A DNA stretch of 64,000 nucleotides from Alphaproteobacteria bacterium (GCA_965261975.1 CBDHEC010000008.1:3095-67094); one strand, 5' to 3'; counted from the first letter of the stretch, positions 19,077-30,690 are shown. Numbers and translations: made by a program. Notes: generated from the letters alone by a model not told the origin.

Positions 19077-19130
19077 CGATTAAGACGTGTGCCTCGCAAA
19101 CTGAGTGCAGACACATCAGCAGGACGCACG

Positions 19131-19574
19131 ATGCTTAAGAAACGTCGAGAAATTCTGATCATCGCATTCATCGCGGCGGCCGTTGTCCTCGCCGGCCGGT
19201 TCTTCGCCACCGAGACCACTGAATCCGCAACCACGGAAGCTTCAGATACCCCCTTCTCCACGATCAACCAGCGGGCTGAACCCGCTGAGCGACACGGCGA
19301 TGCGATTATCGTGTCCCTGGACGGCAGCGCGCCCAGCACGCCGGTTCGCGTGGGCAGCAACCAGTGCCTCCAGTGGTGGGGCGAGCACCCGAAAGCCTAC
19401 CGGGTCGAGGTCGCCGGGATCGACGGCGACGACTGGCAGCCAAACGAGGCATTCCTGGCAAAGAAAAAAGCCGGTAATCCCGAGTATAATTTCCCGGCCT
19501 GGTATCGCTTCTTCGCCGCAGACAATCGGCCCACGCAAATCTCCTATCAGGTGCTGCGCGGACTTTGCCAATAG
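19131..19574 (+). CDS. Hypothetical membrane-anchored periplasmic protein
   Basis: N-terminal TM helix ILIIAFIAAAVVLAG followed by a soluble domain with two conserved Cys. Good codon usage. No family recognised. Confidence 0.5.
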   Translation: MLKKRREILIIAFIAAAVVLAGRFFATETTESATTEASDTPFSTINQRAEPAERHGDAIIVSLDGSAPSTPVRVGSNQCLQWWGEHPKAYRVEVAGIDGDDWQPNEAFLAKKKAGNPEYNFPAWYRFFAADNRPTQISYQVLRGLCQ

Positions 19575-21009: not shown

Positions 21010-21039
21010 CGCCTGCGCTTCTCAAGGCAAGTTGCGAAG

Positions 21040-21066
21040 CCCCTCCCCTCGCGGGGAGGGGTTTTT
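21040..21066 (+). terminator. Rho-independent terminator after the HMGL-like gene
   Basis: Stem CCCCTCCCC, loop tcgc, stem GGGGAGGGG, then TTTTT. Sits between convergent genes. Confidence 0.8.
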
Positions 21067-21071
21067 CGTTT

Positions 21072-24000
21072 CTAGTCGCCGAACGCCTCGTTGCCGAACG
21101 AAGGGTCAGGCGCCGATGCCGGGGCCGGCGCACGCTCTGCGGACGGCCCGCGACGCGCCTTGAACGACGCACTTCCTGCCGGAATCTTGAAATCGCCGCC
21201 CTCACCAATCAGGCTGAAGGGCGCCCAGAAGATCGGGTGGGCGTAGGAGAAGGCAGGCTTGCCCGTCTTCGGATCGACGAAACCAGGCCCATCGATCAAC
21301 GCGACCTGGGACTGGCGAAGGGCCTCGGCACGGGTGAGACCCGGCGCCGACTTCTGCCGCGCGAATACGTCCGTGGTCAGCAACCGTGCCGACGTCGTCT
21401 CGACCGGCCAGTTCGAGACCAGCAATGCGCGCGTGCCGGCATAGAAAAACGCACGGCCCAGCCCCGAGACCGCTTCCGCACCGGCGCCGGACGCCGTGCC
21501 GGTGTTGCAGGCCGACAGCACGACCCAGTCCGCGTTCATCTCGAGCTCGAAGATCTCGCCCATTTGCAGCAGGCCGTCGCCATTCTTGTCGCCGGCAATC
21601 TGCGGCGCCGTCAGCGCCAGCGCAGGCTCGACCAGGCCATCGAGGTCACCGGGCACGAGCCCGTGAGTTGCAAACGCCACCACCCGATACGCATCGAGCG
21701 CGGCATCACGCACCGACTGCTCATTCGCCTGCTTGCCGATGAACACATCGCGGGAAAGGTCCGCATCCAGTGCGCCGGCCATGGTGCGGATCTCATCGGC
21801 CGTATCCGGCAGCCGCGGCAGCTGCGAGAACTGGGCAGCATCGACCTCCTGGGTGCGCGGCAGAGAACGCAGGCGCACCGGGACGTTGCGCAGCTGCAGG
21901 CCACCCCGGCTGATGAGTTCCGCCTGGGCGCCGGGCACCGGTGTCTGGGCGAGTTGCGATTCGTCGAAGACGGGGTCGCCGAAGCCCAGGAACGCACGCT
22001 CCGCTTGAGTCGTGCCCGAGAGCGAACGCAACGCAACCAACGAGGCCACCGACGGCATCACCGTCACCGAATGGGTCCGTGTGAGCCAGGCCACGTCGCG
22101 ATAGCGGTCGAAGAGCTGGGCGCTGTCATCGGTGGCTGCGGCCGGCGCCGTCGGCAAAAGCGAGAAGGGAATCTGGCCCAAAGGGCCATCGGCCACCACA
22201 ATCAGATTGGGCGTTTCCTTCCAGCCCGACGCCACCGGCGCCAGCAGGTTCTGGTACAGGCGATGGGCGAGCCGGGTGTCGAAATCGTGGATATCGGCCA
22301 GTGTCGCCGCCTGCGGGTCCAGTGCGCGCCGGAGCTGCGTCGCGGCGGCGTCGAGGCGCACGCGTCCGATCTTCGAGACCTCGAAGCCGACATCGCCGGA
22401 TTTGCCGAAGGCCCAGACATAGGTTCGGTCGTCATCCACATAGGACACGAAGATGGACTCATCGTCGGCCAATGCGCCACGCACCTCCGCGAGTTCCGAG
22501 GGCGGCGGGTCGATCAGGCGAATATAGTCGGGAAACTGGTCCTCCAGCGCCTCACGCGCCCGGGCCCGTTTGCCACGCAGGTCGTCGATATCGTCGCGAA
22601 GCGCGCGTATGTCGCCGGAATCGCTCTGCCCCTCCGGCGCGGCCTGCAACGATGTAAGCAATCCGAAAAGCGCCCCAATCTGGCGAAGCAGGTCCTGCTC
22701 CTCGCGCACCAGCTTGGCGAGCTCGGGGTCGCGCGCGGCTGCCCGCGAGCTCGACTGCGCCACCGCACGCTGGACAGAACTACCGCGCGCCGCATCCGAG
22801 ATCCGGAAAGCTTCTGCCGCGATCTCCGCGCGCTCATCCGGCGCGGAGACATTGCCATAAACATGGGCGAGCACACCCATATAGCCCTCGAGTACGGCGC
22901 GCAGGCGAATGGCCTGGGCCGTGGCGGTCGCATCCTCCTCCTCGACGTTGCGCGAACTGGAGAGCAGGGTCGGCACCGCGTTGCGGAAGTCCGCAAGCGC
23001 CGCTTCATCTTCGCCCTTGAGATGCCGGCCGATCCCCACGTAACCGCGTGCCAGCGCGGTCTTCGCATGCTTGCCGCCAAGGCGCTGCAAACTCCGCTCC
23101 GCAAGGTCGCTTGCGATCGCAAGGTCAGCGTCCACCTCACCGACCTTGTAGAAGATGAGCGCGGAATCCACCGTCGACGCGATGCTGCGCCGGCGCAGCA
23201 GATTGTCGCCGGCAGTGAGCCGGTCAACATCGCGGACAATCTCGGCAGCCTCGTCCCATTTCTCCTGGCCGGCGAGCGCCCGCGCGAGCCCAATCCGAAT
23301 CCGCAGGAGGTGCGACGACGTATCCCGCGCGCCGATCTGCCTGAGGATATCCTCGGCCTCGCGGCCCAGGTCAGCTGCCTCCGCGAACCGACCTTGCGCA
23401 AACAGCGTGCGTCCCAATATGTCGATGGTATTCGCGGAGAGGGGCGTGAGTTTACCGTAGTCGCGAATGTTGCGGGCGACGGCCTCGCGCATCTGGCTTT
23501 CCGCCTCGATCTCCCGGCCGAGCGTCATCAGCAGCCGCGCGCGCACCACCTGGACGCTCGTCAGGCGGATGTCAAAGAGCACCTTCTGCTGGCCGGACCC
23601 AGGAAGCGCCACAAGAGCACGCTCGAGCTCCTCCATCGCCTCCACGATGACCTTTTCCGCATCCTCATGCTTGCCACGCGACGCCAGTATGCGCGCCTCG
23701 ACATCCAGAATCAGGTGGTTCGTGAAACTGCGAATATGCGTCGGAACCCTCTCGGGAAATCGTCGATAGATCCCCCGCATGTCCTTGACCAGGTCTTCGG
23801 CCCGTCCAAGCCGGCCCATGGAGAGCTGAGCGCGCGCCAATTGTGCCATCCCGCCAATCCGGCGCCCCGGACGCTCCGCGCGTTCATTGTCGACGCGTTT
23901 CTGGGATGCCTCGAGAGAGCCGCGCAGGTTGCCCGCACGCGCTTCTGCGGCGCCGAGGTCGCGGGCGATCCGCGCCACCGGGCCGCCATGACGTTCCGCC

Positions 24001-24302
24001 AGAGCGAGCGCCTGGCGCAGATCTTTCACGGACTGCTGAACTTTGCCGATCGCGCCTGCCGCGTTTCCGCGTTGCTGATAAAAGCGGGCGAGCGCCGGGC
24101 CCCGCATGCTTGCCGGCGGCTCCTTGTCCGCCGTCGCCCGGAGGTTACCCTGTTGCGCCATTGCCGACGGCGGTGCGATTGCCACGGCTGCCAGCAGGAA
24201 CACCAGCAACATTGGCACAAGCCAAAGAGCGGCCGCGCCCTTTCTCACTCCCGGTTTCGTCTCAAACAAGTTCGTCATCAGTTTTCCCCGACTGATAGAC
24301 AC
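21072..24302 (-). CDS. Secreted TPR-repeat protein with C-terminal CHAT (caspase-like) protease domain
   Basis: 1076 aa. N-terminal signal peptide and a long TPR-like helical region. C-terminal CHAT His/Cys dyad contexts VVAFATHG and VVLSACNTG. Confidence 0.8.
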   Translation of the reverse strand: MSISRGKLMTNLFETKPGVRKGAAALWLVPMLLVFLLAAVAIAPPSAMAQQGNLRATADKEPPASMRGPALARFYQQRGNAAGAIGKVQQSVKDLRQALALAERHGGPVARIARDLGAAEARAGNLRGSLEASQKRVDNERAERPGRRIGGMAQLARAQLSMGRLGRAEDLVKDMRGIYRRFPERVPTHIRSFTNHLILDVEARILASRGKHEDAEKVIVEAMEELERALVALPGSGQQKVLFDIRLTSVQVVRARLLMTLGREIEAESQMREAVARNIRDYGKLTPLSANTIDILGRTLFAQGRFAEAADLGREAEDILRQIGARDTSSHLLRIRIGLARALAGQEKWDEAAEIVRDVDRLTAGDNLLRRRSIASTVDSALIFYKVGEVDADLAIASDLAERSLQRLGGKHAKTALARGYVGIGRHLKGEDEAALADFRNAVPTLLSSSRNVEEEDATATAQAIRLRAVLEGYMGVLAHVYGNVSAPDERAEIAAEAFRISDAARGSSVQRAVAQSSSRAAARDPELAKLVREEQDLLRQIGALFGLLTSLQAAPEGQSDSGDIRALRDDIDDLRGKRARAREALEDQFPDYIRLIDPPPSELAEVRGALADDESIFVSYVDDDRTYVWAFGKSGDVGFEVSKIGRVRLDAAATQLRRALDPQAATLADIHDFDTRLAHRLYQNLLAPVASGWKETPNLIVVADGPLGQIPFSLLPTAPAAATDDSAQLFDRYRDVAWLTRTHSVTVMPSVASLVALRSLSGTTQAERAFLGFGDPVFDESQLAQTPVPGAQAELISRGGLQLRNVPVRLRSLPRTQEVDAAQFSQLPRLPDTADEIRTMAGALDADLSRDVFIGKQANEQSVRDAALDAYRVVAFATHGLVPGDLDGLVEPALALTAPQIAGDKNGDGLLQMGEIFELEMNADWVVLSACNTGTASGAGAEAVSGLGRAFFYAGTRALLVSNWPVETTSARLLTTDVFARQKSAPGLTRAEALRQSQVALIDGPGFVDPKTGKPAFSYAHPIFWAPFSLIGEGGDFKIPAGSASFKARRGPSAERAPAPASAPDPSFGNEAFGD

Positions 24303-24332
24303 GCGTTTACAAACTGCTCCGTCAAAACAATC

Positions 24333-26444
24333 CTATTTCTCATCCAAGGCGAAGACGCCATCCCAATCTTCCGGAGCATTCACCGCCAGCCGTCTGGACC
24401 GCGCAGCCATAGCCGCAGCCGCCGGATCGTCACCGGCGATCGTCTCCCACTGGCTCACCGCAGCCTCGAACCGGCCCTCAGTGTAATCCGCCTTTGCCCG
24501 CGCATACATCTCAAGCACCTCACCGGGCGTTCCGCCCACCGGGATGTGAAGCGTCACGGGCTCCGCGCGGCCGACGACCCTGACCGTATCGATCTCGCGC
24601 AACATCACCCCATCCGTGCCGCGAGCGCGGGTGTCGCCGGAGATCAGCAGGCCGGTTCCGTAGACCTTGTTCGCACCCTCCAGGCGCGCGGCGAGGTTCA
24701 CGGCGTCGCCCATGACCGTGTAGTTGAACCGGCGCGCCGAGCCGATGTTGCCGACCAGGATGCGACCCGTGTTGATCCCGATGCGCTGACGCAGCGCGAT
24801 CCCGTGAGCCGCCTCCAGGTCGCGGTTGAGTTCATCCAGGCGCTGCTGACACTCGACCGCCGCGGCGATCGCACTGTCGGCATGTCCCGGATCGTTATGC
24901 GGCGCGCCGAACACCGCGACGATGGCGTCGCCGATATATTTGTCGACGAAGCCGCCATGACGCTCGATCACATCGGTCATCGCCGACAGATATTCGTTCA
25001 GCACCCGCACCAGCTGTTCGGGCGACATTCCTTCTGACATCGCGGTGAAACTCGCGAGGTCGGAGAAGAAGACGGTCAGCTCCCGCGTCTCGCCCCCCAG
25101 CGCCGGCATCTCGCTGCGCTCGACCATCTGCTCGATCACGGACGGCGCAAGATAGAGGCCGAACATCTGGCGCAGCAGCCGCTTGTCCCGGTCTGCGACG
25201 GTGAATCGATATGCGCCCATCAGCGCGAAAACAATCGCGATCGCGATCGGCGGATCAAACAGCGGGAAGACGGTGCCGCCCTGGAACAACAGGACAGCCG
25301 TCGCCGTCCACAGCGCCGCCGCAGCAATTGCGATAATCCCCGCCAGCCAGGCACTGACGCCGATCGTCACGAGTGCGATCACGATCGCGAGGGCAAACGT
25401 CAGCCCGTATACCTGCCAGGGCGCAGCCGCCGAGAGCAGGTTGCCGCGAACCAGGTTGTTGACGGCGAATGCATGCATATAGACGCCGGGCACGCTGTCG
25501 CGGGCGACCGTAGCGTCGAGGACATCCGGCAGCCTCTCCAGCGCGCAGCGGCGCGAGAACGCGGCCCCGTCCGGCGCCGCCGCGAAACGCAGGGAAGAGA
25601 GCTTTCGGTCCTCGACGTCGAGCACCCCGCCCAGGAGAACGACCTTGCCGGCGAAGTGACGGGCGAAGAAATCGTTGTCCCCGGCTGCAGCGCAGGCTTG
25701 TAAATCGGCGAAGGAATAGGTCGGGATGCCGCGTTGGTCGTCATCGAAGTTGATAAGCAGGTTGTTCCCGCCCACCGTCGGCAACGGGACCCCGTCGCGC
25801 GTTGCGCGGCCGTCCGGATCGAAGGCAAGGCGGTCGCCGAGCGTGCGGGCCGCCAGCTCGAGTGCCAGCGAGGGTTCGAACGCACGCCCGTCACCCGTCC
25901 GCGCGAGACTGACGGGCACGCCGCGAACGATGCCGTCGGCATCGGAATAGAGGTTGGCGGCACGAATATTCGCCCCATGGCCGACGGCGAAACGCTGGCC
26001 CACATTCGGCAGGATCGGTTGAGTCGAGTGCTGCGCCTTGCTCTACACCATCTGCCCTGCACGACCGTGCCGACGAAGACTGAGAAGGAAATCCCGATCG
26101 AACCCGCGGATCTGCGAGGCCGCGCTCGTCGGCAGGATGACGTCCATCCCGATCACCGCTGCACCGCCGTCGATCACGGCATCGAAAACCTGCGCAATCT
26201 CGGGCGTCCACATCACCTTCGGCGTGGTGTCGAAGGGTTTGCGGCGGTAGGTCTCCTCATCGATGGCAATGACAACAGTCGGTGACTGCGCACGCTCATG
26301 TTGCGGGCCAAAGGCGGCCTGGCGCAGCCACACCAGGCTGTCGGAGGACAGACCGTCGAGCGTGTCAGACCATGGGCCCGCGACCGCGACGGTGGCGATC
26401 AGCGCCGCGATCACGGCGGCCATCAGGGCTTTTACGCGCGGCAA
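24333..26444 (-). pseudogene. CHASE2 sensor-domain class III adenylate/guanylate cyclase, interrupted by a single in-frame TAG (about 26043-26045)
   Basis: ORF 26043..26444 holds the N-terminal TM and CHASE2 start (VVIAIDEETYRRKPF..GAAVIGMDVIL). ORF 24333..26003 holds the rest of CHASE2, TM helices and the cyclase domain (FSDLASFT, YIGDAIVAVFGAP). Both are in the same frame, separated only by TAG plus 13 sense codons (SKAQHSTQPILPN). Confidence 0.8.
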
Positions 26445-26445
26445 G

Positions 26446-27120
26446 TCAGAACCTGATCAGCCGCGAGAGCTTGGGCTGGTCGCCCGCCTCGGCAAAAGCG
26501 TCAATATCGAACACCAGCATACGTTCCCCGTCCGCTGCACTGAAACGGGCGCGGTAGACCCCTCCGGCCTCCAACGCGACATCCTTCGTGGCCAAATCGG
26601 TTGCACCCGGAGGGATGTCCATCTCGACCGGATCCCCCGGACGGTCAACACGTTCGATCAAAAGGCTGCCGGCCACGCCGCTCCGCACCAGAGGACTCGC
26701 GCCGTAGAGCGTCAGCTCCGGCCGGACGCCGGGTTTGGCGGCTGCGTCACCGGTGCCGCGAAAGGCCACGACCCCGCTGTCGTTGGCCTGGCCCCGGGAG
26801 AGCTCGACTTGACCGCCGTCACACGGCACCTCGACCTTGCGCACGGTACCGCCGGCCACCGCGCTCGCTTTCTTGCCGATCGTGACGGTGCCGCCGGTGA
26901 TGGTCTCCTGCATACAGCTCGCAAAGTAGCCGAGCACCAGCCGCTCGCCTGCCGAGAGCTTCACCACGTCGCCGGGCTCCACATAATCCATGAACGAAAG
27001 GTCGGATCCAGCAGCCTGGATATCCTCGACGAGGGCGCTCGGTTGCGCCGCGGCGGGCAGCGCGAGCAGGCTCACCGCGGCGGAAATGACGACATATCGG
27101 ACAACCGGTATCGATGACAT
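26446..27120 (-). CDS. Secreted/periplasmic hypothetical protein, possibly FecR-domain-like; first gene of the CHASE2/CHAT operon
   Basis: Signal peptide MSSIPVVRYVVISAAVSLLALPAAA. Stop abuts the cyclase start with a 1-2 nt gap. Beta-rich region GDVVKLSAGERLVLGY...GGTVTIG is compatible with a FecR-like fold; that assignment is unverified. Confidence 0.5.
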   Translation of the reverse strand: MSSIPVVRYVVISAAVSLLALPAAAQPSALVEDIQAAGSDLSFMDYVEPGDVVKLSAGERLVLGYFASCMQETITGGTVTIGKKASAVAGGTVRKVEVPCDGGQVELSRGQANDSGVVAFRGTGDAAAKPGVRPELTLYGASPLVRSGVAGSLLIERVDRPGDPVEMDIPPGATDLATKDVALEAGGVYRARFSAADGERMLVFDIDAFAEAGDQPKLSRLIRF

Positions 27121-27244
27121 GACGCTTCTCCCCGACTTCGGGCGGCGATTCGGCCGCGTATGGAACCAACAAGGCTCCATTTCTCGATTATCGAAGATAT
27201 CGTCTGGGGAGACAATCGGCAGTGACCACGGTCACAAAGTTGTT

Positions 27245-28231
27245 CTAGCCCCCAAACTCCGCCACCAATGCCCCGGTCGTGGTGCGTGAATCGAGCGCCA
27301 CATGGGCATCGGCGATATCCGCCAGCTCATAACGGCCGGTGATATTGGATTTCACGGTTCCGTCCGCGATCGCGGCCACCACCTCTTCCATCATCGCCGC
27401 CTTCTCCTCCGGCGTCGCCGCGTAGTCCTTCATCGATGCCTTGGTGAAGATCAGGGATTTCTGGTTGAGCTCCAGCGCGTCGATCGGCGGCGGACCCGAC
27501 GCGTGGCCGTAATTCACGAACCAGCCCCGCGGTGCCAGCGCGCGGAGATTACCCTGATAGGCATCCGCGCCGACCGCGTCATAGACCACCGGCACCCCCG
27601 CACCGCCCGTGATGTCGAGGACGGCGTCGGCGAAGTCTTCCTTGGTGTAATCGATCACATGGGCGCAGCCATTCTCCTCGGCCGCCAGGAACTTGTCGGG
27701 TGAACTGACGGTGCCGATAACCTTTGCGCCCACGCTTGTCGCCCACTGGGTCAGCAGACTCCCCATGCCGCCGGCCGCGGAATGGACCAGGATGGTCTCC
27801 CCGGCCTCCACCCGGTACAGCTGCCGCAGCAGATACTGGGCGGTCATGGTCCGCACGAAGGCCGCCACCACCGTCGCATCGTCGAGGTCGGCGGGCGGCG
27901 TGTAAAGCTGCTCGGCGGGAACAATGCGCGCGTCCGCATAGGCGCCGACGTTGAACAGATAGGCCGCCCGGTCGCCTTCCTTGTGGTCCGCAACCCCCTC
28001 GCCCACCGCCGCGATGGTCCCGACACCCTCGAGGCCGAGCACCGTCGGCAATGGCGGCTTCAGGAAGTAGCGTCCCTGTCGCATATAAGAATCCGCGAAA
28101 TGAATCGCCGATGCGGTCTGTTTCAACACGACCTCCCCCGGGCCCGGCTCGGCCAGGGTATCGGTCTCGATCTTGATGACCTCGGGGTCACCATATTCGT
28201 GGATGCGGGCGACGCGTGTCTGCATGGCCAA
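27245..28231 (-). CDS. qor: NADPH:quinone oxidoreductase (MDR/zinc-free alcohol dehydrogenase superfamily)
   Basis: 328 aa. GroES-like N-terminal domain plus Rossmann motif AAGGMGS. Confidence 0.8.
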   Translation of the reverse strand: MAMQTRVARIHEYGDPEVIKIETDTLAEPGPGEVVLKQTASAIHFADSYMRQGRYFLKPPLPTVLGLEGVGTIAAVGEGVADHKEGDRAAYLFNVGAYADARIVPAEQLYTPPADLDDATVVAAFVRTMTAQYLLRQLYRVEAGETILVHSAAGGMGSLLTQWATSVGAKVIGTVSSPDKFLAAEENGCAHVIDYTKEDFADAVLDITGGAGVPVVYDAVGADAYQGNLRALAPRGWFVNYGHASGPPPIDALELNQKSLIFTKASMKDYAATPEEKAAMMEEVVAAIADGTVKSNITGRYELADIADAHVALDSRTTTGALVAEFGG

Positions 28232-28333: not shown

Positions 28334-29317
28334 TTAAGCCACCCGCAGATAGTGCAGCGAGAACAGGTCGTTCGCATCCGTCCAGTGACGGAAGGCGCGC
28401 CAGCCGGCCTTGGCCGCCAGCGCGTGGAACTCCTCGATGTCGTATTTGTGGGAATCCTCGGTGTGGATCGATTCACCCGCCGCAAACGCGAAGCTGTGGC
28501 CGTTGATCCGGACTTCCTGATCCCGCTCACTCACGAGGTGCATCTCGATCCGGCCCTGATCCGCAACCCAGCGTGCGTCATGCGAGAACGCGTCGATATC
28601 GAAGTTGCCATCCAGCTCCCGGTTCACCCGGCGCAGGACGTTGAGGTTGAACTGGGCCGTCACGCCGGCCGCATCATTGTAGGCCGCGTGCAAGATGCCC
28701 GTGTCCTTGCGCAGATCGACACCGATCAGGAGCCCGTTGTCGGTCCCGAGATCGGTGGCCGCGGCGCGCAGGAAATCCACCGCGGCGGCGCGCGTGAAGT
28801 TGCCGATGGTCGAGCCCGGGAAGAACCCGATGCGCGCCGCGCCGCCCGCGATCTCCGGCAGCTCGAACGGCTGGGTGTAGTCGGCAGCGATAGGCACGAC
28901 GGGCAGATCGGGATAGGCGCCCGCCAGCGCCTTGGCCGAGGCCAGCAAATGCTCGCGTGAAATATCGACCGGGATATAGGCCGCCGGGGTCTCCAGCGCG
29001 TCCAGCAGAATGCGGATCTTGGTGCTCGACCCACTGCCGAACTCCACCACGCTGGCGTTGGCGCCGATCAGCTCGGCGAACTCCGCTGCATGGGTGCGCA
29101 GCAACGCGGTCTCGGTGCGGGTCGGGTAATACTCCGGCAGTTCACAGATATCGTCGAACAGCTGCGAGCCGCGCTCGTCGTAGAAATACTTGCTCGACAG
29201 CTTCTTCTGGGTCTGGGCGAGCCCATCGAGGACATCGTCGAGAAAGCTGTCGGCCGCGTGGTCATATTCTACATAATCATGAAGCGGGCCGAGGCTCATC
29301 ACTGCCGCGTCGTTCAT
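28334..29317 (-). CDS. egtD: L-histidine N-alpha-methyltransferase (ergothioneine biosynthesis)
   Basis: YFYDERGSQLFDDICELPEYYPTRTE and EFGSGSSTK motifs characteristic of EgtD. 4-nt overlap with egtB. Confidence 0.9.
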   Translation of the reverse strand: MNDAAVMSLGPLHDYVEYDHAADSFLDDVLDGLAQTQKKLSSKYFYDERGSQLFDDICELPEYYPTRTETALLRTHAAEFAELIGANASVVEFGSGSSTKIRILLDALETPAAYIPVDISREHLLASAKALAGAYPDLPVVPIAADYTQPFELPEIAGGAARIGFFPGSTIGNFTRAAAVDFLRAAATDLGTDNGLLIGVDLRKDTGILHAAYNDAAGVTAQFNLNVLRRVNRELDGNFDIDAFSHDARWVADQGRIEMHLVSERDQEVRINGHSFAFAAGESIHTEDSHKYDIEEFHALAAKAGWRAFRHWTDANDLFSLHYLRVA

Positions 29318-30690
29318 TGTTCGGCCCCGTCATCGGCCAGACGCACGCCGGCGAACACCCAGCGCATCGCGGGGTAGAAGAAGTTCCGATAGGTAGCGCG
29401 GGTGTGTCCGTCGGGAGTCACACAAGCGCCGCCGCGCAAGACAAACTGATTGGCCATGAATTTCCCGTTATATTCGCCGACCGCGCCCGACACGGGCTTG
29501 AACCCCGGATATGGCACATAGGGGCTCTGGGTCCACTCCCACACGTCGCCAAACATCTGTTCCGGCCGGTCGGATGGCTCGCCGGTCGCCGGCGCGGTGC
29601 GCAGCAACCCGGACCCGACGAAGTTGCCCTCGACAGGCTGGTCGCGGGCAAACACCTCCCACTCCCCTTCGCGCGGCAGGCGCTTGCCGGCCCAGCGCGC
29701 GTAGGCATCGGCCTCATAGAGGCTGACATGACAGACAGGCGCCTGATCGTTGACCTGCTGCAGGCCCGACAAAGACATCGCACACCATTCGTCGTCGACC
29801 ATCTGCCAGTAGAGCGGCGCGTTCCAGCCCTCCGCACCCACGGCGGCCCAACCATCGGACAGCCAGAGCTCGGGTCGCCCATAGCCATTGTCGGCCATGA
29901 ACGCCTTCCATTCGCCGTTGGTCACAAGCCGTGACGCCAGCCGGAAGGGAGCCAAATGGACGTTGTGGCGCGGTCCCTCGTTATCGAAGGCGAATTCCGT
30001 GCCGTCATGGCCGATCTCGACAAGCCCACCGGCGTGATCGAACCAGCGCAGCTCGGGCGCCTTGCGCGCCGGCGCGGCGCGATAAGTCTGATAGGCGGGC
30101 GCCACGCTGTTGAAGGAAAAGGCGTGGAGAATATCCATCAGGATCAGCTCCTGATGCTGCTGCTCATGATGCAGCCCCAGCGCAATCAGCGGAGCGACCC
30201 TGTCCCAGGTCTTCTCGTCCGCATCGTTGATCAGGGCCCGCATCGCGTCATCGACATGGTTGCGATAGGCCTTCACTTGTTCCGCCGTCGGGCGGGTCAG
30301 GAGGCCTCGCTCGGGTCGCGGATGGCGCGCGCCGACGGCGTCGTAATAGGAATTGAAGAGAAATCGGTAATGCTCATCGAGCGGTTCATAACCGCCCGCA
30401 AAGTCCCGCAGGATCATGGTCTCGAAGAACCAGGTGATATGCGCACGATGCCATTTGGTCGGGCTCGCATCGGGCATCGACTGCACGACCTGGTCTTCCG
30501 CCGACAGGGGTGCTGCAAGGCGCTCGGTCTCGCCGCGCACCCAGTTGAAATGATCGAGAACCTGTCCCCGGTCACGCGGATGCGCATCGAGGATCACCGG
30601 CTCGGACCCCAAGGATGTCACGGCGCTTCTCCTGTTGGCGCCCGCGTCCCGCACGACCGTCTTTCCGGGACACTTCACACCGCAGCGCAA
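29314..30690 (-). CDS. egtB: Ergothioneine biosynthesis sulfoxide synthase EgtB (DinB_2 plus FGE-sulfatase domains)
   Basis: DinB-like N-terminus (HFNWVRGETERL, HRAHITWFFE) and C-terminal FGE-type domain (GDVWEWTQSPYVPYPGF). Exact start uncertain. Confidence 0.85.
   Translation of the reverse strand: MRCGVKCPGKTVVRDAGANRRSAVTSLGSEPVILDAHPRDRGQVLDHFNWVRGETERLAAPLSAEDQVVQSMPDASPTKWHRAHITWFFETMILRDFAGGYEPLDEHYRFLFNSYYDAVGARHPRPERGLLTRPTAEQVKAYRNHVDDAMRALINDADEKTWDRVAPLIALGLHHEQQHQELILMDILHAFSFNSVAPAYQTYRAAPARKAPELRWFDHAGGLVEIGHDGTEFAFDNEGPRHNVHLAPFRLASRLVTNGEWKAFMADNGYGRPELWLSDGWAAVGAEGWNAPLYWQMVDDEWCAMSLSGLQQVNDQAPVCHVSLYEADAYARWAGKRLPREGEWEVFARDQPVEGNFVGSGLLRTAPATGEPSDRPEQMFGDVWEWTQSPYVPYPGFKPVSGAVGEYNGKFMANQFVLRGGACVTPDGHTRATYRNFFYPAMRWVFAGVRLADDGAEQ

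Follow-up and report, generated by a model that had tools for sequence, protein, structure and literature searches.

An unannotated family of exported proteins encoded beside CHASE2 receptors and, frequently, exported caspase-fold proteases

Introduction

A 64,000-nucleotide stretch of DNA from an alphaproteobacterium (GCA_965261975.1, CBDHEC010000008.1:3095-67094; hereafter the window) carries three genes on its minus strand, read in the same direction, which fill positions 21072..27180 in a scan for open reading frames (ORFs). They encode a small exported protein that we call X, a class III adenylate cyclase with a CHASE2 sensor domain, and an exported protein in which a TPR array precedes a CHAT protease domain (TPR-CHAT). 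We describe here the family of predicted exported proteins to which X belongs, its pairing with CHASE2 receptors in other genomes, and its separate association with exported caspase-fold proteases.

CHASE2, described in 2003, is a widespread extracytoplasmic sensor domain, for which we know of no direct ligand or activation mechanism. To our knowledge, bacterial CHAT and orthocaspase proteases are also almost all without known substrates.

Results

Layout of the three genes

The original prediction, made from the sequence of the window, had described a trio of co-oriented minus-strand genes that looked like one operon, and all three ORFs were recovered. X and the cyclase gene are separated by a single nucleotide (TGA-C-TTG, with the X stop codon at 26448..26446 and the cyclase TTG at 26444), one fewer than first counted, and the cyclase and TPR-CHAT genes by 30 nt, as expected. 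Neither of these gaps contains a terminator-like hairpin. Together with the shared orientation, this bears out the operon-like packing, with a strong hairpin beyond its downstream end and, before its first gene, a promoter-like site (Table 1).

The first protein had been given 244 amino acids (aa), which is the length of the ORF from ATG 27180. Because X homologues measure about 225 aa, the deposited product for the X of the window has 224 aa and a promoter-like site lies at 27215..27187, translation most likely starts at ATG 27120. Such promoter-like sites are not statistically enriched (3 found, 1.7 expected), and the location of this one agrees with a start at 27120.

X founds a large family without a domain model

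X begins with a hydrophobic N-terminus, in keeping with the signal peptide originally assigned to it, and a hydrophobic leader of variable sequence is kept across its family. The AlphaFold model of the protein (mean predicted local distance difference test score, pLDDT, 84.8) contains a small beta domain (aa 28-105), a low-confidence linker in which residues 114-127 score below 50, and a beta-sandwich (aa 135-224). Among 257 aligned members, only Y65, C69, S86, C100, R121 and R220 are conserved in all. A disulfide between C69 and C100 would fit an exported protein. R121 is present in 257 of 257 members and is followed by a variable, gap-rich segment (residues 122-133); an invariant residue in a linker of low model confidence and variable length, it is a candidate cleavage site.

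A word-indexed search with X returned 221 homologues, all of about 225 aa and none with a Pfam domain. An exhaustive HMMER search extended the family to 1,240 clusters at 50% identity, 883 of them at E<=1e-10; the best 150 matches listed are close family members only, and this search gives the size of the family. Relatives occur in 276 species genomes, counting one genome per species. X itself matched nothing in Pfam or NCBIfam, even at E=10. Thus, X founds a large family of predicted exported proteins that lacks a Pfam or NCBIfam model.

The suggestion that X might be FecR-like did not survive. None of 53 family members matched FecR (PF04773) at E<=5, whereas Escherichia coli FecR, used as a positive control, matched the same model at 2.8e-17. 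Alignment of the X family profile with E. coli FecR by hhalign gave a probability of 0.2%, and three fold searches with X returned no FecR-type structure (those in the PDB copy being 6ovk, 6ovm, 4m0n and 4m0h). Against PDB sequences at E<=10, the X profiles found only chance matches, to RhoGDI (E=0.16) and uL24 (E=0.4).

The CHASE2 cyclase

The second gene was correctly recognised as encoding a membrane cyclase with a CHASE2 sensor: its CHASE2 (PF05226; E=1e-23, 84.7 bits, cutoff 26.3) and Guanylate_cyc (PF00211; E=1.9e-22, 80.2 bits, cutoff 21.9) matches both lie well above the Pfam cutoffs. Hydropathy places a first transmembrane helix (TM1) at aa ~5-24, followed by CHASE2, a block of three helices at aa ~343-415 (TM2-4) and the catalytic domain. 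With one helix before CHASE2 and three after it, the sensor domain is predicted to be periplasmic and the cyclase domain cytoplasmic; CHASE2 kinases have been reported to have the same arrangement of one plus three helices (PMC5192318).

The motifs FFSD, VDKYIGDA and GDAVNLAARLE are found in the cyclase of the window and kept in 12 aligned relatives. In class III cyclases, these motifs hold the metal-binding Asp pair, a Lys that specifies adenine, and an Asn and an Arg that act on the transition state. From the substrate motif with its Lys, cyclic AMP (cAMP) is the predicted product. Cyclases of this clade also carry a conserved helical C-terminal extension of ~70 aa (aa ~629-703, window 24336-24560), which ends in a conserved W…L-x-x-K motif.

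The TPR-CHAT protease

The third gene encodes the secreted 1076-aa protein with TPR repeats and a C-terminal CHAT domain that had been proposed. CHAT (PF12770) matches over its whole profile length (E=3.6e-50, 171.5 bits, cutoff 24), and TPR_12 reaches 52 bits (cutoff 30.1), the remaining TPR models staying below their cutoffs. The catalytic contexts are intact, as originally read, with H880 (FATHG) and C932 (LSACNT) invariant in 22 homologues. Homologues carry Sec or lipoprotein (L-x-G-C) signals. Its own signal peptide and the invariant His and Cys indicate that the protein is exported and probably an active protease of the caspase fold. A phmmer search with it against all PDB sequences returned nothing at E<=0.001.

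Two loci show TPR-CHAT genes in other settings. A distant homologue (27% identity; L092, 7001-17156) is followed by a ShlB gene and then by one whose product exceeds 3,900 aa, which puts an exported CHAT protein in a two-partner-secretion context where X and CHASE2 are both absent. Another locus (L040, 13793-20583) has two tandem TPR-CHAT paralogues on the opposite strand, downstream of an X-CHASE2 cyclase pair.

X and CHASE2 form the conserved core of the neighbourhood

We compared the window with loci around X or CHAT homologues in other genomes (L-numbers). The X loci were drawn from one genome per species, protein-collection contigs and plasmid records, and 87 remained after removal of duplicates. 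A CHASE2 gene comes directly after X in 69 of the 79 loci with enough downstream sequence, and in 41 of the 44 with full flanks. Clustering of ORFs over all 87 loci placed CHASE2 in 81 and one protease or the other in 47, with TPR-CHAT in 31, Peptidase_C14 in 26 and the two together in 10; a TPR-CHAT gene lies within the flanks of 21 of the 44 full-flank loci.

In the window, L001 and L096, the TPR-CHAT gene lies downstream on the same strand; in L003, L009 and L090, immediately upstream; in L084 and the Tagaea loci, upstream with an exported Peptidase_C14 gene between; in L085, upstream and divergent; and in L004, downstream and convergent. There are thus at least five arrangements. A CHAT homologue of only 38% identity still belongs to a CHAT-X-CHASE2 triad (L090), whereas homologues at 31% and 27% do not. 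The adjacency of X, CHASE2 and protease genes, repeated in dozens of species and several gene orders, is far beyond chance. The triad does recur as a neighbourhood, but its obligate unit is X plus CHASE2; TPR-CHAT is frequent without being universal, and Peptidase_C14 can replace or join it.

Does X follow the sensor or the output of the receptor? The receptors of three loci (L053, L059, L069) carry, as C-terminal output behind CHASE2, a SpoIIE/PP2C phosphatase and not a cyclase. Because the partner of X stays CHASE2 when the output is PP2C, X tracks the sensor domain and not the output domain. At L053 (10630-12663), X is followed by a CHASE2-SpoIIE receptor with a Pfam SpoIIE match of 6.7e-52.

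X also occurs without a CHASE2 gene, followed instead by a gene for an exported protein that combines Peptidase_C14 with PG_binding_1 (L054, L077) or TPR with Peptidase_C14 (L072). The X copies that stand beside Peptidase_C14 without CHASE2 keep both Cys and the linker Arg. The link of X to caspase-fold proteases therefore does not depend on CHASE2. At L066, X is followed by a WD40 protein with an apparent caspase-type domain at the contig end, a call that comes from reading the last residues, Pfam confirming WD40 only. One metagenome-assembled genome (CAYTFW01) encodes two X paralogues, one beside a CHASE2 cyclase (L083) and the other beside an exported protein with Peptidase_C14 and PG_binding_1 domains (L054).

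Many loci have X and CHASE2 genes in the same frame and parted by a single stop codon; about one third would be expected by chance, and we regard this feature as uninformative. Cyclase or CHASE2 frames are split in L055, L056, L058 and L090 (12056-12845). These splits are probably indel errors, since the record names of the form "contig_NNNN" (and the names only) suggest long-read metagenome assemblies, and we did not count them as pseudogenes.

Cultured carriers of the family include Azospirillum lipoferum 4B (X AZOLI_RS22655, cyclase AZOLI_RS22650), Azospirillum sp. B510 and Bradyrhizobium centrolobii (L079). On plasmid AZO_p3 of A. lipoferum 4B (L093, 7875-12497), the gene that comes after X and the CHASE2 cyclase, AZOLI_RS22645, encodes a ShlB/FhaC/HecB outer-membrane transporter. 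The family is thus present in cultured, genetically tractable bacteria and open to standard genetics.

A nonsense codon interrupts the cyclase gene of the window

The nonsense codon that had been noticed in the cyclase was confirmed as an in-frame TAG at 26045..26043. The Leu that it replaces is invariant in 12 of 12 aligned CHASE2 cyclases. In the nearest relative (L096, cyclase 81% identical), the same site reads CTC (Leu) within an intact 705-aa gene, and the cyclase gene of L001 is also intact (694 aa). A truncated cyclase product of 556 aa is on record from the same 136-kb contig, so the stop is part of the deposited assembly.

Compared with L096, the ratio of nonsynonymous to synonymous substitution rates (dN/dS) of the cyclase is 0.08 for the part ahead of the stop and 0.12 for the part past it, against 0.14 for X, 0.09 for CHAT and 0.12 for a neighbouring dehydrogenase gene. 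Because dN/dS past the stop is like that of the neighbours, with no sign of decay after the lesion, the stop would be either a very recent mutation or a sequencing error. It cuts the cyclase after 133 residues, and reinitiation at GTG 26003 would yield a protein of wrong topology, without TM1 and the first third of CHASE2. The suspicion that the module is inactive here seems justified, in that it has probably lost its cAMP output in this assembly; given a genuine TAG, that output is dead.

The TAG could instead be a minority variant or stem from an error of sequencing or assembly, with a module that works in the organism; this is a substantial possibility, to which we give a little less than an even chance. 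The lesion is single, it is one base away from TTG (Leu), the remainder of the gene is intact, with dN/dS like that of its neighbours, and the source is a draft contig. The TAG is nevertheless present in the deposited record, where gene callers yielded the truncated product, and a genuine, very recent mutation would give an identical picture.

Genomic context in the window

The genes around the module are ordinary ones of metabolism, with egtB, egtD and one for a Zn-dependent alcohol dehydrogenase upstream and those for an HMGL-like protein and dihydroorotate dehydrogenase (pyrD) downstream. No mobile elements were found among the genes around it. The ergothioneine biosynthesis genes egtD (Methyltransf_33, 2e-116) and egtB (DinB_2 and FGE-sulfatase) occupy 28334-30690 on the minus strand and are syntenic in L001 and L096; X is set apart from them by the Zn-dependent alcohol dehydrogenase family gene (27245..28231). 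On the other side, the GC-rich hairpin between the convergent TPR-CHAT and HMGL-like genes is likely a bidirectional terminator. It alone separates these genes in the window and in L096, and an extra Ribonuc_L-PSP gene, absent from both, stands between them in L001 (16152-16541). Between the dihydroorotate dehydrogenase and HMGL-like genes, the plus strand carries an ORF of 161 aa (19089-19574) whose product has a hydrophobic N-terminus and matches nothing in Pfam; L001 and L096 have a 147-aa gene, also without Pfam match, at the same place.

Table 1. Features of the module, in window coordinates
Feature	Position	Strand	Details
Gene X	26446..27120	minus	224 aa, exported; longer ORF to 27180; no Pfam/NCBIfam match
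X signal peptide	27046..27120	minus	aa 1-25, MSSIPVVRYVVISAAVSLLALPAAA / QP; hydrophobic N-terminus; family keeps a variable hydrophobic leader
X N-terminal beta domain	26806..27045	minus	aa 26-105; invariant C69 (26914..26916) and C100 (26821..26823)
X flexible linker	26719..26805	minus	aa 106-134; R121 (26758..26760) after F120
X C-terminal Ig/FN3-like beta-sandwich	26449..26718	minus	aa 135-224; motif L-x-x-G-x-x-Y, L183..Y189
CHASE2 class III adenylate cyclase gene	24333..26444	minus	703 codons, start TTG, nonsense-interrupted
CHASE2 sensor domain	25377..26402	minus	aa 15-356; Pfam and hydropathy
Class III catalytic domain	24561..25088	minus	aa 453-628; metal Asp, Lys and Asn/Arg motifs present
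In-frame TAG	26043..26045	minus	codon 134; replaces invariant Leu of G-x-x-V-L-(G/S)-x-x-Q-H
TPR-CHAT protease gene	21072..24302	minus	predicted caspase-fold, exported; 1076 aa from GTG; internal ATG at 24278
TPR-CHAT signal peptide	24153..24278	minus	…AALWLVPMLLVFLLAAVAIAPPSAMA / QQ; Sec-type
CHAT domain	21201..22274	minus	aa 677-1034; H880 (21663..21665), C932 (21507..21509)
Promoter-like -35/-10	27187..27215	minus	TTGTCT-17-GATAAT; consensus scan; just upstream of ATG 27180
GC-rich hairpin	21036..21065		13 bp; between convergent TPR-CHAT and HMGL-like genes

Discussion

What might the three proteins do together? Because the sensory parts are periplasmic, X is constant with CHASE2, and its link to proteases is independent of CHASE2, we propose that X is the periplasmic partner of CHASE2, that the protease acts on or with X, and that the state of X sets the output of the receptor. 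We give this proposal an even chance of being right. The three genes would then form one envelope-sensing module, in which X may serve as a dedicated co-sensor or protein ligand of the CHASE2 ectodomain, presumably by physical binding, and the receptor would relay the periplasmic state to the cytoplasmic class III cyclase. TPR-CHAT, or elsewhere an exported Peptidase_C14 orthocaspase that replaces or joins it, would act on or with X, its TPR array supplying recognition of a substrate or signal. A protein or peptide ligand for CHASE2 would fit the finding that CHASE2 cyclases of Sinorhizobium meliloti respond to a signal of protein nature (PMC13001267).

A proteolytic relay of the kind first suggested is plausible. 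If X is a protease substrate, the most likely concrete step would be its cleavage in the inter-domain linker, at or next to R121, which may alter the engagement of X with CHASE2 and so switch cAMP synthesis; whether such cleavage would raise or lower output, the model leaves free. The characterised non-caspase C14 proteases all cut after Arg or Lys (PMC5756287). In its full form, with cleavage at the invariant R121 by a caspase-fold protease and a freed domain that switches CHASE2 toward cAMP or PP2C output, we hold this scheme to be doubtful. It is worth stating for what it would mean: a bacterial periplasmic "protease-activated receptor" cascade ending in cAMP or PP2C signalling, with the first activation mechanism for CHASE2 and the first physiological substrate of a periplasmic CHAT or orthocaspase. 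In any case, X and the invariant Arg of its linker offer a testable candidate both for CHASE2 sensing and as a CHAT or orthocaspase substrate.

Several observations weigh against the proposal. About 40% of the full-flank X-CHASE2 loci have no protease gene within 5-10 kb on each side; in such loci, therefore, the protease is dispensable or encoded elsewhere, and it is not obligatory in cis. CHAT proteases may prefer a residue other than Arg. The promoter and terminator matches around the operon-like trio are no commoner than expected by chance. Deletion of mtxA, which occupies an analogous place upstream of a CHASE2 cyclase gene, gave no phenotype (PMC4439547). Finally, the S. meliloti proteins tied to the cyclase CyaD1, namely SMc02177 (FecR domain), SMc02178 (periplasmic) and SMb20495 (TPR), are downstream targets of cAMP-Clr regulation, and they are not needed for perception of the plant signal (PMC5498481), which favours an output role for neighbours of this kind.

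The S. meliloti case speaks for a different arrangement, in which X and CHASE2 alone make up the sensor, X binding an external ligand and docking on CHASE2 as periplasmic binding proteins dock on some sensor kinases, and the protease is a co-regulated output, an envelope-remodelling effector or a cAMP-regulated target. Near-universal adjacency of X and CHASE2, with a protease in only about half of the loci, also speaks for it. We nonetheless consider it unlikely, if the most serious of the alternatives, since X pairs with exported Peptidase_C14 where no CHASE2 gene is found (L054, L072 and L077, and L066 with its tentative caspase-type domain), which is hard to explain if X serves CHASE2 only, and since the protease gene stays beside X through many rearrangements.

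These same X-Peptidase_C14 pairs, and the four-gene form CHAT-C14-X-CHASE2 of Tagaea-like loci, could instead mean that the protease is the centre of the system: X would regulate, inhibit or chaperone it, or the protease would cleave the CHASE2 ectodomain, as originally suggested, and CHASE2 would report protease activity or envelope damage. Of the 87 loci, however, 81 have CHASE2 and 47 have any protease, so that the tie of X to CHASE2 is much the tighter, and a cursory look at the CHASE2 domain identified no conserved exposed cleavage motif; we judge this to be improbable. A role in defence, conflict or programmed cell death, as the combination of a caspase-like protease with cyclic nucleotides might recall from Pycsar/CBASS and the type III-E Craspase, is very improbable and was rejected: the resemblance of the cyclase catalytic domain to PycC models (best E=3.4e-31) is generic class III homology, the TPR-CHAT architecture shared with Csx29 comes without the PDB sequence match sought above, X and TPR-CHAT match no PADLOC model, protease and sensor are periplasmic and not cytoplasmic, and the genes lie among syntenic housekeeping genes, without mobile elements, at a dN/dS of ~0.1 like that of their neighbours.

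How does the module that we propose, with X as the partner of CHASE2, compare with known systems? The architecture of the window protease, a TPR array followed by CHAT with a His/Cys dyad, is that of Csx29 (type III-E Craspase), HetF and separase-like CHAT proteases. Csx29 is cytoplasmic and under RNA-guided control, whereas the window protein is exported and tied to a membrane receptor. The LapD-LapG-LapA system also joins a periplasmic cysteine protease to cyclic-nucleotide signalling, but it works inside-out, with cyclic di-GMP controlling the protease, and LapG is not of the caspase fold; the structural resemblance is weak and could be a generic one. Papers that name both CHASE2 and caspases concern fusions that bear a caspase domain in the cytoplasm (PMC3501461, PMC8195603), and our literature search found no paper that links CHASE2 with CHAT.

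The original prediction stated that no signal, protease substrate or output had been characterised for such a module, which is partly outdated. In S. meliloti, the CHASE2 cyclases CyaD1, CyaD2 and CyaK sense a plant protein via the outer-membrane protein NsrA (PMC13001267), and smc02177 adjoins cyaD1 (PMC5498481). This system resembles the window in its alphaproteobacterial CHASE2 class III cyclase, in exported partners encoded alongside and in a large exported TPR protein in the pathway (PMC13001267, PMC5498481); it differs in that the neighbour has a true FecR domain (PF04773) and that no CHAT or C14 protease is reported. In Campylobacterota, a conserved cluster encodes a CHASE2 adenylate cyclase, a phosphodiesterase, a FecR-domain protein of the outer membrane and a TPR protein (PMC9239204). 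A CHASE2 cyclase thus again stands with exported beta-rich and TPR proteins in a proposed single pathway (PMC9239204), but the partner is FecR, CHAT is not mentioned, and the phosphodiesterase gene has no counterpart beside the window triad.

Among CHASE2 kinases, too, the gene for an exported partner is known to precede that of the receptor. In the Burkholderia "BiofilmReg" operon and in Pseudomonas aeruginosa PA4035/PA4036, a gene for an exported LysM-FecR protein (COG4254) lies directly upstream of that for a CHASE2 histidine kinase (PMC5192318), with short gaps as in the window. There, the output is a histidine kinase with a response regulator, the partner combines LysM and FecR, and no protease is present. 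A parallel to X in layout and position is MtxA of Magnetospirillum gryphiswaldense (Rhodospirillales), whose C-terminal part has a crystal structure and whose gene is followed by that of a CHASE2 adenylate cyclase (PMC4439547). By its published description, MtxA is built of a signal peptide, a beta-rich N-domain, a flexible linker sensitive to proteases and an Ig/FN3-like domain (PMC4439547), a layout that X has as well, in the same genomic position; unlike X, it has 313 aa and an extra C-terminal TPR-like domain. The X profiles found no MtxA entry among all PDB sequences at E<=10, and the likeness is one of layout and position.

CHASE2 receptors paired with an exported partner from an upstream gene, and clusters of FecR, TPR and CHASE2 proteins, were therefore already known. 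What is new here is the X family, its independent link to exported caspase-fold proteases and a candidate cleavage motif. Seen beside these systems, the window and its relatives suggest a general rule, by which CHASE2 receptors would use a dedicated exported partner encoded upstream, be it a FecR-domain protein, MtxA or X according to lineage.

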